Source: a virus
Lineage: Duplodnaviria > Heunggongvirae > Uroviricota > Caudoviricetes
IMG/VR virus record: IMGVR_UViG_2698536571_000008
Length of the DNA: 4,268 bases
Strand: one strand, 5' to 3'
The notes beneath the pieces are model-generated. The model was not told where the DNA came from. It saw only the letters and a program-made list of their open reading frames with translations, and made no database searches. Each line of letters starts with the position of its first letter. Within the stretch, counting starts at the first letter, position 1. The translations under genes were made by a program, and so were the position numbers. Below, piece by piece: positions 52 through 4,268 of this stretch.

Positions 52-405
52 TTAAAAAAAGAACAAATGGTAGTGTCCGCTATTGCCAGTACACCTCAAT
101 TGCTCTGCGGCTTCGCTCAGAGCTGGCGTATGTTCCCGGCCTACTGATTCACACAGGTAATCAACGAAACCGGACACCAGTTTTCGTTCGCGAGGCGTGA
201 TCGCCCCACCGACCGGAGTCCAGTAATCGAAACCCAGTTGCAGGAGTTTGAAAAAACGCTTGTGGAATGCGTAGTTACACACACGCTTAAAGTCTGCGTG
301 TATCCACTCACCTATTTTGATTTGATGCAGAAAATCGCAACTCTCCGGCGTCGCCGGGAGAAGTAATCCGGAAGAGGTTTGTTTGACCAGTTGTATATGT
401 GCCAT
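52..405 (-). CDS. Hypothetical phage protein, about 117 aa from the ATG at 405. The ORF track's 131-aa version starts at a TTG at 447.
   Basis: Open frame 52..447 on the minus strand with TAA stop at 52-54. The internal ATG at 403-405 is preceded by GGAG with a 7-nt spacer (minus strand CCGGAGAAAGCCG-ATG), whereas the TTG at 445-447 has no Shine-Dalgarno. I do not recognise the family. Confidence 0.45.
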   Translation of the reverse strand: MAHIQLVKQTSSGLLLPATPESCDFLHQIKIGEWIHADFKRVCNYAFHKRFFKLLQLGFDYWTPVGGAITPRERKLVSGFVDYLCESVGREHTPALSEAAEQLRCTGNSGHYHLFFF

Positions 406-443
406 CGGCTTTCTCCGGTGGCACGGTGTTACACAGCAGGAGT

Positions 444-731
444 TCAATCCTGCTCAAGATTGTAGATGAGTTTATTCTTCAGCAAAAGCAGAAAACCAGC
501 CTTAAAACCAATCTCTTTCAAAACCCGTAATGATGTGACAAATTCGTCCTCACGCAAAATAAAACCGTCCGTCAGAAGTCCATTACAAAAATAAAATAAC
601 ACAGCACCGCTCTTCCTTTGTTGAGATTGCAAACATCTAATGCGGCAATGGCTGACAATCGCTCCATTCTCAACGCGCACAGCATAGAGGCCATTTTCAC
701 TAAAAATTTCACGCAATTCTTCGATTTTCAT
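444..731 (-). CDS. Hypothetical small phage protein (95 aa)
   Basis: ATG at 729-731 preceded by GGAAGGA with an 8-nt spacer; TGA stop at 444-446. It lies downstream of a predicted promoter and upstream of the ORF at 52-405. No family recognised. Confidence 0.5.
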   Translation of the reverse strand: MKIEELREIFSENGLYAVRVENGAIVSHCRIRCLQSQQRKSGAVLFYFCNGLLTDGFILREDEFVTSLRVLKEIGFKAGFLLLLKNKLIYNLEQD

Positions 732-980: not shown

Positions 981-1136
981 TTACTTCCTGGATTCGTAGT
1001 CTACGAAGACAGCGACCTCCGTCTGGCCGGTTCGGATTCGTACCTCACAGAGGTCTTTCCTCGTTACCAGTGCCGTCACTATGACGGTTAAACAGATGAC
1101 GATCAGGGCGATTAACATCGCCTTTTGCTGCTTCAT
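981..1136 (-). CDS. hok: Hok/Gef-family type I toxin (51 aa small membrane peptide)
   Basis: Translation MKQQKAMLIALIVICLTVIVTALVTRKDLCEVRIRTGQTEVAVFVDYESRK has the Hok signature: a single transmembrane helix, the TRKDLCEV motif and the conserved C-terminal region. It is very close to E. coli HokC/HokD as I remember them, with a different C-terminal tail. ATG at 1134-1136 is preceded by AGGAG with a 9-nt spacer; TAA stop at 981-983. Confidence 0.85.
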   Translation of the reverse strand: MKQQKAMLIALIVICLTVIVTALVTRKDLCEVRIRTGQTEVAVFVDYESRK

Positions 1137-1193
1137 AGCCTGCTTCTCCTTGCCTTTCGGCATGTAAGAGGCTAACCTACATGTGCAAAGCAT
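981..1193 (-). CDS. mok: Mok-like regulatory reading frame (70 aa): an in-frame N-terminal extension of hok
   Basis: ATG at 1191-1193 is preceded by GAGG with an 8-nt spacer. The N-terminal extension MLCTCRLASYMPKGKEKQA resembles the MokC extension (MLNTCR...KEKRAMKQHKAM) as I recall it, and is in the same frame as hok. Confidence 0.55.
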   Translation of the reverse strand: MLCTCRLASYMPKGKEKQAMKQQKAMLIALIVICLTVIVTALVTRKDLCEVRIRTGQTEVAVFVDYESRK

Positions 1194-1363: not shown

Positions 1364-2050
1364 TCACTCCTTCTCTTCTTTACCGTAGTGGAGTTGACCA
1401 ATTTTGATAAGAGGGCGTCCCTGAGATTTGCGGTGTAGATTGGTATCGCGCAGAGAATACACACAGCCACAATATTCCTGCTGATAGAATTTTTCGCGCT
1501 TGCTGATTTCAATCATACGGGACGAGCCGCCCTGCTTGCGCCAGTTATAATCCCAGTACACCATGCCCGGATAATGCGCGACGGCTCGCCGCCCACAGTC
1601 GTTAACCTGCTGCATATTTTTCCAGCGTGAAATGCCCAGTGAACTGCTGATCACACTGAAACCATTTTCAGCGGCGTACAGCGCTGTCCGCTCAAAACGC
1701 ATGTCAAAACACATGGTGCAACGGATCCCTCGTTCGGGCTCCCATTCCATTCCTTTGGCTCGTTCAAACCAGTTGTCTGTGTCGTAATCAGCATCAATAA
1801 ACGGCACGCCGTGTTGTTCAGCAAAGCGAATATTCTCATCCTTACGAATTAAATACTCTTTCTGAGGATGAATGTTCGGGTTGTAGAAAAAGATGGTGTA
1901 GTCGATTCCCGAGGCCTGAAGCGCCTCCATCACCTCACCGGAACATGGAGCACAGCAAGAGTGCAGTAGTAGTTTGTTTGCCCCGTTTGGGAGCTCCAAT
2001 TTGGGCCGTTTGAAATCAGCAACTGTCATAAATATGTTTATTGGGGTCAT
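1364..2050 (-). CDS. queH: QueH-like epoxyqueuosine reductase homologue (DUF208 family). The 5' end is uncertain: candidate ATGs at 2050 and 2029, or the frame may extend into the N block.
   Basis: Translation carries the DUF208/QueH hallmarks [39 protein letters not shown] and [12 protein letters not shown]. Stop codon at 1364-1366. Neither ATG at 2050 or 2029 has a Shine-Dalgarno, and the frame stays open up to the N block. Confidence 0.75.
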
Positions 2051-2329: not shown

Positions 2330-2752
2330 TCACAGTATCGCCTCCTGAAAATTACCCTGATAGAAAGCCAGTACACGCTGCATAGCTTCGCTCTTCCGGC
2401 ACTCGCGACAGATTATATTCAGGCGCCTGTCGTAGCGGCGTATTTCTCCGTCAGGTAATGACCAGATAAGGTCCGGATCAACAACAACCGGTTTCCTCAC
2501 CTTTACTCTCGAGAGTTTTTTGCGGGCGCTTTGCCAGTCCTTGCGAGCCTGTTCAGACGGGAATAAGCCGTAGCCAGAATTATATACATCACCACTTGCG
2601 ACCAGTTCTATGCATAAGCGACCGACAGACGCACGACTGATACCTGTTTCATCTGACAACTGCCGAATCGTGACCCGACCGTCCTGATGCACGAGTTCCA
2701 CAATTCGCGTCTTCAGTTCTTCCCGCTGTTCGGGAGTAAAAGGTTTCGCCAT
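2330..2752 (-). CDS. Small winged-helix/HTH DNA-binding protein of the prophage replication module (140 aa)
   Basis: ATG at 2750-2752 is preceded by AGGAGG; TGA stop at 2330-2332. The N-terminal segment RQLSDETGISRASVGRLCIELVASG looks like a helix-turn-helix. It lies 14 nt downstream of the DnaC-like gene. Exact family not recognised. Confidence 0.6.
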   Translation of the reverse strand: MAKPFTPEQREELKTRIVELVHQDGRVTIRQLSDETGISRASVGRLCIELVASGDVYNSGYGLFPSEQARKDWQSARKKLSRVKVRKPVVVDPDLIWSLPDGEIRRYDRRLNIICRECRKSEAMQRVLAFYQGNFQEAIL

Positions 2753-2766
2753 AAATCCTCCTGAAA

Positions 2767-3356
2767 CTACTTAACAACCCTCGAATGGCTAACATTCGGA
2801 CGCCAGCTCTCCCAGTTAAAATTCACCCAGCGCCCGCCGTTCATGACCATGCGATCCATCACCCGCTCGCCGAGCAATGTTTTCATCACCTCATAGTTCA
2901 GGTTTGTCAGCATCCCCACGCTGCGCATCGACGCTGTCCGGCGATCAACAATCTGGTGCAGCACCACCTGCTCGTTTTTCGTCTCGCGCTGAATGCCAAT
3001 TTCATCAAGAACCAGCAGATCCACTTCGCACAGCTCCCGCAAAAATTTTTCGCCTGACTGCCCGTCGTCATAGCTGGCGTGCAGGGCGCTCATAACATCA
3101 GCCACGGTAACCACAATCACTGTCTGACCGTCTTTCAGCAGGCGATTCCCGATAGCTGCCGCTAAGTGATTCTTCCCGGTACCAGGTTTTCCGCTGAACG
3201 CAAAATTTGTACACCCGGTCATCAGTTCATCGGCGATGGATTTCGCCTGGCTTAACGCGTATCGCTGGCCGTCGTTCTGCACCTGGTAATTCGCAAACGA
3301 GCATTTACGGTGCAACGGCTGGATGCCTGAGCGATTCAGAATTTTTTCCACCCGCA
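2767..3356 (-). CDS. DnaC-like helicase loader (AAA+ ATPase, phage P-like/IstB-like), partial: the N-terminal ~55 codons lie in the N block
   Basis: Walker A FSGKPGTGKNHLAAAIG and Walker B LLVLDEIG. Strong resemblance to E. coli DnaC: NRSGIQPLHRKCSFANYQV matches DnaC FNRSGIRPLHQNCSFENYRV, and GERVMDRMVMNGGRWVNFNWESWR is also shared. Stop codon at 2767-2769. The GTG the ORF track uses as a start (3349-3351) aligns to an internal DnaC position. Confidence 0.85.
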
Positions 3357-3560
3357 NNNNNNNNNNNNNNNNNNNNNNNNNNNNNNNNNNNNNNNNNNNN
3401 NNNNNNNNNNNNNNNNNNNNNNNNNNNNNNNNNNNNNNNNNNNNNNNNNNNNNNNNNNNNNNNNNNNNNNNNNNNNNNNNNNNNNNNNNNNNNNNNNNNN
3501 NNNNNNNNNNNNNNNNNNNNNNNNNNNNNNNNNNNNNNNNNNNNNNNNNNNNNNNNNNNN
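3357..3560. other. Run of 204 N (masked or unsequenced), hiding the 3' end of the replication-initiator gene and the 5' end of the DnaC-like gene
   Basis: Directly visible. Confidence 1.
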
Positions 3561-3818
3561 CGCGAACAGGCCCTGGTATTCATTGGCGATGCTGTGTCGA
3601 ATCACCTGCTCAGGTGTAAAACCCTGCTGACGGAATTTTTCCAGTTCCCGTATCGCCCCGTTAGCGCCCTGCTCCGTTCGAATCGGTTTTCGCAATGCCT
3701 GTCTGAACCGGACCCACTCATGCCAGAGTGTTTCCGGCAACCAATCGGGCAGCTCAATAGCCTCCGGCTCGAATTTTTTAGACGCTCGTTTTTGGCGAGG
3801 GGGAGATCAGTATTTAGA

Positions 3819-3863
3819 TCTTCCTCTTCCTCTTCCTCTTCCTCTTCCTCTTCCTCTTCCTCT
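3819..3863. repeat. Perfect hexanucleotide tandem repeat (TCTTCC)7.5, which on the minus strand is (GAGGAA)n encoding Glu14 in the linker frame
   Basis: Seven complete TCTTCC units plus TCT, counted base by base. The plus-strand reading (poly-Ser in ORF 3207..3878) is the antisense artefact. Confidence 0.95.
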
Positions 3864-3966
3864 GGTAACGCTTTTTGATCCGTTTGTGTAACGCTGGCAG
3901 CGTTACCTTTTCGTTTCAGTTCGCGTATTTTTGTTACTCGCTCGTTTGTAACCGCCCGTTTTTTTT
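3864..3966. other. Iteron-like repeat cluster plus T-rich tract inside the replication-initiator linker region; candidate phage replication origin
   Basis: 19-bp palindrome GTAACGCTG-G-CAGCGTTAC (3888-3906). Further GTAAC(G/C)C or GTTAC-containing copies at 3865-3871, 3933-3941 and 3948-3955. Recurring CGTTTGT(G)TAAC at 3881-3892 and 3942-3952. T8 tract at 3959-3966. Confidence 0.3.
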
Positions 3967-4171
3967 AGAGCTTTTTCCGTTATGACGTTCAAAGTTAGGT
4001 AGAGAAAGCCCTCCGTCATTTTCGACCAGCCATCCAACCTGAATTAACGCATCAGCAAAACCAGACATAAAAGTGATGCGATCTATTGCACTTTTTGTAA
4101 CGCCGCGAGCGTTACAATCTGCATTACCGTCTATCATTTGTTGATCCGCCCATGCCCAGAAGCGAATAACC

Positions 4172-4268
4172 TGAGGTAGCCTGAGTTTAACGGACACTCC
4201 TTCCTGAAATAGAATGGCATCAGAAGGAGCTAATAATGAGCAGAAAAACCCAACGTTACTCTAAAGAG
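4172..4268 (+). mobile_element. Left end of an IS3-family insertion sequence (IS600-like), partial; continues beyond the window
   Basis: Terminal sequence TGAGGTAGCCTGAGTTTAACGGACAC starts with TG and has a GGACAC box about 20 nt in, as in IS3-family left inverted repeats. The orfA start lies 64 nt inside the end. The N-terminal peptide MSRKTQRYSKE fits the IS3-family OrfA pattern (basic residues, then Y/F-S-x-E-F-K). Confidence 0.5.
4236..4268 (+). CDS. IS3-family transposase OrfA, first 11 codons only
   Basis: ATG at 4236 is preceded by AAGGAG (4223-4228) with a 7-nt spacer. Translation is MSRKTQRYSKE and the frame is open to the window edge. Confidence 0.45.
   Translation, partial: MSRKTQRYSKE

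Follow-up and report, generated by a model that had tools for sequence, protein, structure and literature searches.

The window analysed here is a stretch of 4268 nt in which the genes discussed all lie on the minus strand and make up the early region of a lambdoid prophage. Its genes and gross features were as follows.

52-447, minus strand: DUF1367 gene
981-1193, minus strand: ORF of a Hok-like toxin
1364-2040, minus strand: gene for QueH (epoxyqueuosine reductase)
2070-2263 and 3357-3560: N runs, the former upstream of QueH, the latter at the junction between the 3' end of the initiator and the 5' end of the DnaC-like gene
2330-2752, minus strand: DUF977/Ren-like gene
2767-3356, minus strand: DnaC-like helicase loader gene (ydaV-like), directly downstream of the initiator and masked in its 5' part (Pfam IstB_IS21 and Bac_DnaA ATPase; PHROG 50)
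3561-4171, minus strand: remnant of a ydaU-type (Rac-like) initiator gene, a pseudogene, recognized by DNA identity and reading frames
3959-3966, minus strand: A8 on the coding strand (T8 on the plus strand), a +2 frameshift in the Lys-Lys run of SSKKRA, located by alignment and three-frame translation
4172-4268, plus strand: IS600 (IS3 family), left end, in which the transposase ORF begins (MSRKTQRYSKE...), at 100% identity

The initiator remnant shared ~90% DNA identity with ydaU of 'Escherichia phage Rac' (MN652886) and with the gene annotated as 'replication protein O' in vB_EcoS-666R9, and ydaV was found at the corresponding downstream place in both relatives. An intact homologue of the remnant matched PHROG 2509, a replication initiation protein family. 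The 3' end of the pseudogene fell in the N-mask at 3357-3560. At the other end, IS600 had inserted in the initiator gene with a junction at ~4172, and the window terminated within the element; many E. coli genomes contain sequences that are annotated as 'IS3-like element IS600 family transposase' and are 100% identical to positions 4172-4268. Relative to intact genes, the remnant lacked the 5' ~102 nt and all upstream DNA, which IS600 separates or removes together with the upstream cluster of repeats described below. Alignment with intact Rac-type ydaU genes revealed A6 at the position of the T8 run; the AAAAAA of the intact gene, in the Lys-Lys codons of SSKKRA, had become AAAAAAAA in the window copy, and three-frame translation indicated that the frame switches there. 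A 10-bp deletion near 3804/3805 caused the second frameshift. This deletion took out one copy of a direct repeat (TCCCCCTAAA TCCCCCT), and its sequence is consistent with an origin by slippage. Beside it, the window copy carried four additional GAGGAA units, and this 24-nt expansion is a slippage product as well. The truncation by IS600 and the two frameshifts thus left the window initiator dead three times over, which bore out the earlier remark that the initiator is now broken. The exact window allele was absent from complete E. coli genomes, among which the closest was 96.5% identical.

Within the initiator remnant, the following repeats and the neighbouring tract were observed.

3819-3863, minus strand: polypurine (GAGGAA)n on the coding strand, encoding a Glu run, and all-pyrimidine (TCTTCC)7.5 on the plus strand (TRF and alignment)
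3865-3871, minus strand: half-site reading GTAACGC on the plus strand and GCGTTACC on the coding strand, codons A-L-P (exact match)
3887-3907: core palindrome of the linker cluster, TGTAACGC-TGGCA-GCGTTACC, formed by two inverted half-sites 12 nt apart from start to start
3933-3937 and 3948-3952: weak 5-mer matches GTTAC and GTAAC, not conserved across homologues
4095-4127: second cluster, in the N-domain coding sequence, formed by the palindrome TTGTAACGC-CGCGA-GCGTTACAA at 4095-4117 and a degenerate half-site, GCATTAC

The sequence-only reading had described a 19-bp palindrome with related GTAAC/GTTAC repeats at 3864-3966, next to a run of eight T, and had proposed a replication origin there. 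The repeats were present: a perfect 9+1+9 palindrome (GTAACGCTG-G-CAGCGTTAC) occupied 3888-3906, GTAAC or GTTAC occurred at 3865, 3888, 3902, 3933 and 3948 (spacings of 23, 14, 31 and 15 nt), and the T run lay at 3959-3966. They also exceeded chance. Counted on both strands, the 7-mer GTAACGC occurred five times in the 4268-nt window against an expectation of 0.40, with all five copies in 3865-4115, and none of 200 shuffles attained five copies; likewise, 7 of the 12 GTWAC matches in the window fell in the same 251-nt stretch, which makes up 6% of its length. The interval itself was only partly right. Among its five sites, the conserved 7-mer was found only at 3865-3871, 3888-3894 and 3900-3906. 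At the positions corresponding to 3933 and 3948, homologues often read CTTAC or GTTGC, suggesting that GTTAC 3933 and GTAAC 3948 are probably not core sites. Moreover, the feature reached further, to the second cluster at 4095-4127, whose palindrome, 209 nt from the first, had been missed; the degenerate third half-site at 4121-4127 lay 12 nt beyond the half-site of this palindrome. In the coordinates of intact genes, the second cluster corresponded to +149/+161/+173 and coded for residues 50-60, a loop modelled with low confidence in the predicted winged-helix domain. The +149 half-site was missing in about half of the distinct E. coli alleles among viral contigs, and likewise in the window, where GTAATGC replaced GTAACGC. 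Being absent from about half of the alleles, this half-site appears dispensable or in flux; many E. coli copies that are otherwise intact likewise carried the GTAATGC allele.

The initiator has more than 1200 homologues. We collected homologous DNA from 22 genome loci (Shigella to Planctomycete), 80 viral contigs and eight named phages, and built a codon alignment from 12 non-redundant loci. The IMG/VR scan yielded only E. coli copies of 95-99% identity and was used for allele frequencies, not for divergence. In most homologues, the 7-mer was present in 4-8 copies per gene at fixed positions relative to the ATG, down to ~45% protein identity; the Planctomycete locus had five copies, and an end-truncated Ignavibacteria contig had two. 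Intact relatives carried three clusters of half-sites ~200 bp apart, located upstream of the gene, in the DNA coding for the N-domain loop and in the DNA coding for the disordered linker. Within the clusters, half-sites stood 12 nt apart, as inverted pairs with extra direct copies. The upstream cluster consisted of a palindrome, tGTAACGC-N5-GCGTTACa, placed 20-40 nt before the ATG in non-coding DNA in most loci, and the intergenic DNA around it was unalignable between genera. The sites in the N-domain coding sequence, in coding orientation, were +149>, +161> and +173<. The linker sites spanned +368 to +427, with 2-5 copies in 12-nt steps and a final copy 23 nt on, and the core-palindrome pair was found at +368/+380 of intact genes of E. 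coli, Mixta, Yersinia, Serratia, Pantoea and others, with a 5-nt spacer that varied. From one homologue to another, the number of half-sites shifted by 12-nt (4-codon) steps. The final half-site of the linker cluster, at 3865-3871 in the window, abutted the polypurine tract and was kept in 12 of the 12 non-redundant homologues as GCG TTA CC. The earlier placement of the repeats in the linker-coding part of the gene therefore held for the cluster at 3865-3907 (+368..+410), and a further cluster lies in N-domain coding sequence and a third upstream of the start codon. A homologue from Akkermansia was also searched for a repeat family, and none was convincing.

Most half-sites share one reading frame and are read as x-Asn-Ala or x-Val-Thr, as would be the case if the repeats were a by-product of coding for an NA...VT peptide with ordinary codon usage. 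We compared third codon positions inside and outside the motif. The entropy was 0.10 bit inside the motif (12 columns) and 1.16 bit outside it (142 columns), and it was 1.11 bit at columns with an invariant residue (48 columns). Mann-Whitney tests gave p ~3e-7 for motif versus outside and ~6e-7 for motif versus invariant-residue columns, values that overstate independence because the homologue loci are phylogenetically related. Codon choice followed the motif: Val was GTT in 45 of 51 'VT' dipeptides compared with 61 of 205 elsewhere (p = 1e-14), Asn was AAC in 60 of 75 'NA' compared with 103 of 198 elsewhere, and the residue preceding Asn was G, C or S, always through xGT codons. Free variation was observed in the 5-nt spacers and at the third positions of the Ala and Thr codons immediately beyond the 7-mer. 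Furthermore, the last half-site is read in another frame than the remaining ones, with the rare Leu codon TTA invariant. The frozen synonymous positions, the half-site in the other frame and the copies in non-coding DNA indicated that the repeats have been selected as DNA. In a Phycisphaerae locus, a single DNA repeat is read in three frames (VRKM / SAKC / PQV) because its period is 11 nt. The sequence-only reading had itself named two results that would speak against it, and both analyses went in its favour: synonymous positions in the 12 homologues did not drift freely within the repeats, and an account from the codon usage of a repetitive peptide failed on the other-frame half-site, the non-coding copies and the codon bias. 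With this selection at the DNA level and five 7-mers against 0.4 expected, we rejected both chance and codon usage of a repeated peptide, to which we assign next to no probability; the rejection stands because the homologue set is not near-clonal (protein identity ~45% within the class). The conserved NA...VT residues in the loop and the disordered linker are accordingly the protein shadow of these DNA repeats.

The polypurine tract came immediately after the last half-site in the locus of every homologue. In the window it measured 45 nt, i.e., 24 nt more than in intact relatives, and 21 nt was its length in 46 of 51 distinct E. coli alleles. Among all 40-bp windows from -150 to +900, the tract ranked lowest or second-lowest in stability in 10 of 12 loci and third-lowest in the other 2. 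In distant phages, the tract took the form cAGAGAAGAGAAGAGAAGAGAAGA, a 23-nt all-purine run at ~+376..+425 of the initiator genes. One such run, AGAGAAGAGAAGAGAAGAGAAGA, was identical in Xanthomonas CP2 and Salmonella epsilon15, whose N-domains are ~39% identical and whose loci have 64% and 54% G+C, respectively, and it was near-identical in Pseudomonas and Ralstonia phages. Arg within the 23-nt run was encoded by the rare codon AGA in 17 of 17 cases, compared with 7 of ~90 Arg codons elsewhere in those genes; part of the conservation of the tract could nonetheless be at the protein level, because it encodes an acidic/basic peptide (EEEEEE or REEKRRE). The Rac-type tract has ~50% A+T and is not classically AT-rich. 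We propose the purine tract as a candidate unwinding or loading element. The T8 run had earlier been taken for the AT-rich element of the origin. The eight T are real, but we rejected them in this role: they are the frameshift lesion, A8 in place of the A6 of homologues, and the T run is not conserved. The element that would serve the origin is instead the purine tract at 3819-3863, on the other side of the repeats.

We then considered which protein might recognize the repeats. In tblastn searches, the motif-bearing loci all had a single protein in common, the N-domain of the initiator; several of them lacked the cII-like, repressor and DnaC-like genes, and the C-domain was frequently swapped after residue ~137-160. 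The N-domain family is absent from Pfam and NCBIfam, and an intact homologue had no Pfam match at E <= 0.01. The only PHROG families it matched were 'replication initiation' families, and the 'O-like' PHROG 678 covered only residues 85-236. In the AF2 model, residues 96-159 formed a disordered linker, and fold searches with the full-length model gave weak winged-helix matches, which suggested a winged-helix-like fold for the N-domain. The loci fell into the following classes of binding site according to their N-domains.

GTAACGC / GCGTTAC: N-domains of Rac-like prophages, TL-2011b, CP2, VW-6S, YL1 and the Planctomycete locus
GTCAC / GTGAC: Vibrio phage 1.211.A
GTCCGCA / TGCGGAC: Epsilon15, phiPSA1 and the Phycisphaerae locus
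GTAGAC / GTCTAC: Ralstonia phage Raharianne

The class motif was the top non-purine 6-mer in -100..+520 of each locus, with 4-11 copies in the same regions of the gene; that is, the motif class varied with the N-domain subfamily, and the architecture remained constant. A related exchange was observed in E. coli K-12, whose Rac prophage has been reported to carry an active origin, oriJ (PMC3945230). The K-12 ydaU-ydaV region shares with the window family the gene order (cII-like gene, initiator, DnaC-like loader). Its YdaU has a C-domain 83% identical over 119 residues, with repeats at the same position in the linker DNA, followed by an A-rich purine tract. Unlike the window family, K-12 YdaU has a DUF1376 N-domain, and its linker repeats are GATGTTCAAACA rather than GTAACGC; only the C-domain is shared, and the window family does not belong to the YdaU type defined by the DUF1376 N-domain and its cognate repeats. 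The different N-domain and repeats of K-12 therefore place the window origin in a different specificity class. A literature search for a nucleotide-level map of oriJ found none. The covariation of motif and subfamily, the N-domain as the one protein shared by the motif-bearing loci and its winged-helix-like fold suggest that the N-domain may bind the repeats.

The motif is short (7-8 bp), so that another binder, either a host factor or another phage protein, is conceivable. However, loci from Winslowiella, Samsonia, Pantoea, Pectobacterium, the Planctomycete and Ignavibacterium have no detectable protein other than the N-domain in common with the Rac type and keep the motif clusters, and the motif switches with the N-domain subfamily, including the clean module swap in K-12 YdaU. 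It is also unlikely that a host factor would be conserved across phyla while its motif switches within Proteobacteria. We consider recognition by a protein other than the initiator very unlikely.

The palindromes could also act in RNA, as mRNA hairpins that influence translation, stability or processing, or as a terminator of antisense transcription. Folding of the region was slightly more favourable than that of shuffled sequence (z = -2.4); on the antisense strand, the palindrome with the CTTTTCG behind it scored as terminator-like; and both arms changed together between motif classes. Within a class, however, the arm sequence was invariant and did not co-vary. Many copies were unpaired, including the extra direct copies, the three direct and two inverted copies of one Serratia locus and the lone last half-site 23 nt away. 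The number of terminator-like structures was within chance (2 found, 1.4 expected), and the T run is not conserved. A role in RNA structure is highly improbable on these data, and we rejected an antisense terminator.

We interpreted the GTAACGC/GCGTTAC repeats together with the purine tract as a lambda-style origin within the initiator gene, a reading to which we give a probability of roughly 0.7. It is known that lambdoid phages have origins inside their initiator genes, so the principle would not surprise a specialist. In the proposed mechanism, the N-terminal domains would bind the half-sites, as dimers on the palindromes, and the resulting nucleoprotein complex would destabilize the all-purine tract after the last half-site. 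The C-terminal domain would then recruit the DnaC-like loader encoded by the neighbouring gene and the host DnaB helicase. We infer each of these steps, namely binding, melting, helicase recruitment and origin firing, from comparative sequence evidence.

The assignment to the replication module follows from the layout, which resembles that of ori-lambda in gene O of lambda and Stx phages: midway through the initiator gene, the DNA that codes for the linker between the two domains contains repeats, which here are the putative binding sites of the initiator, and beyond them comes a strand-asymmetric tract, which in lambda melts easily and here would be the candidate for melting (PMC7466680). The window retains the linker cluster between the domain-coding parts and, directly downstream of the initiator, the DnaC-like gene at 2767-3356. 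Both systems also combine an N-domain that is origin-specific, here by prediction, and an exchangeable C-domain with a helicase-loader gene next in order, and in both, relatives differ in their repeat number and the protein grows with it, as extra iterons lengthen the O proteins of Stx phages (PMC7466680). There were also differences. The N-domain here falls in no Pfam family and does not detectably match the N-domain of lambda O in sequence, and it does not belong to the lambda O family (Pfam Phage_rep_O). In place of the four to six iterons of ~19 bp in lambda, there are half-sites of 7-8 bp at 12-nt spacing, arranged as palindromes with extra copies; these are grouped in three clusters at intervals of ~200 bp, one of which precedes the gene. 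Beside the repeats lies an all-purine tract, (GAR)n, in place of one that is simply AT-rich, and the loader is DnaC-like and not lambda P. The earlier proposal of a lambda-like intragenic origin was thus upheld in its repeats and its broken initiator, and gained the covariation with the N-domain; its T8 element, its coordinates and its confinement to the linker were not upheld.

A further explanation is that the sites are operators only, through which the initiator or another regulator controls how the replication operon is transcribed or translated, with the origin located elsewhere. The upstream palindrome runs right up to the Shine-Dalgarno sequence (GTTACaaggtgaaaacaatATG), and an autoregulatory operator would fit equally well there. 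In iteron plasmids, inverted iteron repeats are known to serve as Rep operators. However, it is not evident why an operator would need the two further clusters, 150-430 nt into the gene, or the tract; the second intragenic cluster is always followed by the conserved purine tract, which uses non-preferred codons; and the layout resembles that of the lambda origin, in which mid-gene iterons lie beside an easily melted tract (PMC7466680). A promoter scan around the upstream palindrome found nothing. We regard a purely regulatory function as unlikely. The two roles are not mutually exclusive, and the upstream palindrome may double as an autoregulatory operator.

The arrangement also recalls the iterons and operators of plasmid Rep proteins (pPS10, F and P1). 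These are winged-helix initiators, the fold suggested here, and their short motif occurs as an inverted repeat near the start of rep and as repeated copies at the origin. There is no sequence relationship to those systems, and plasmid iterons are direct repeats of 17-22 bp outside the rep gene; here, most sites are in the coding sequence and are of half-site size. Two circular phage-like records filed as plasmids carry the initiator, namely Pusillimonas NC_015459.1 (41 kb), with six GTAACG sites in -100..+520, and E. coli CP088505.1 (52 kb). These may be phage-plasmids or replicating phage DNA.

At its C-terminal end, the protein resembles the E. coli primosomal protein DnaT: the last ~19 residues of intact ydaU products (..PDSAIPPGFRG; ..VSLPDSAIPPGFRG), whose codons fall in the mask in the window, matched the DnaT C-terminus. 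In the Rac type, this match was confined to the tail, with E 0.005-0.4, far below the family cut-off, and a PDB sequence search returned only matches to the DnaT tail, at E ~0.4. The C-domain of the epsilon15 homologue, by comparison, matched Pfam DnaT (PF17948) at 1e-12. The similarity suggests a shared partner-binding tail. DnaT itself lacks both an origin-binding N-domain and associated repeats. In common E. coli and Salmonella variants of the initiator (376-380 aa), an insert of ~114 residues without a Pfam match was observed. It sits exactly after the Glu run and purine tract (alignment columns ~170-310), i.e., in the putative origin, and is possibly a mobile or nuclease-like module.

A rep_origin feature was absent from all ten phage records examined, and the literature search found no nucleotide-level description of this origin. 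The origin of this initiator family has apparently not been described before.

The window holds neither an intact cognate initiator nor the full set of clusters, and its origin is a relic, defunct in cis, which could fire only with a matching initiator supplied in trans. We also considered whether the relic array, with five intact half-sites and the expanded tract, has been retained because it acts in trans, as a decoy for the initiator of an incoming or co-resident phage of the same class, or is fired by such a phage. This is speculative and, in our estimate, distinctly unlikely; the intactness of the sites is equally explained by recent decay. If it were true, the decoy would blunt phage replication; alternatively, firing of the relic origin would amplify the neighbouring chromosome in situ. 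Ectopic copies of ori-lambda are reported to blunt lambda replication (PMC4488673, PMC3349717).

On this reading, the window itself holds the remains of an origin that no longer works, in a prophage that is decaying and probably Shigella-like. For the initiator family, they provide a testable prediction of the origin of a widespread group of proteins that lacks a Pfam model and occurs in Rac-like prophages, TL-2011b, epsilon15/SPN1S, Xanthomonas CP2 and several Pseudomonas, Ralstonia and Vibrio phages. The prediction spans at least four classes of binding site that track the N-domain, the module swap in K-12 YdaU and an all-purine tract that overrides codon preference. If it is correct, residues in a loop and a linker of the protein would be dictated by the protein's own DNA-binding sites, which bears on the interpretation of 'conserved' residues and on the recoding of phage genomes.
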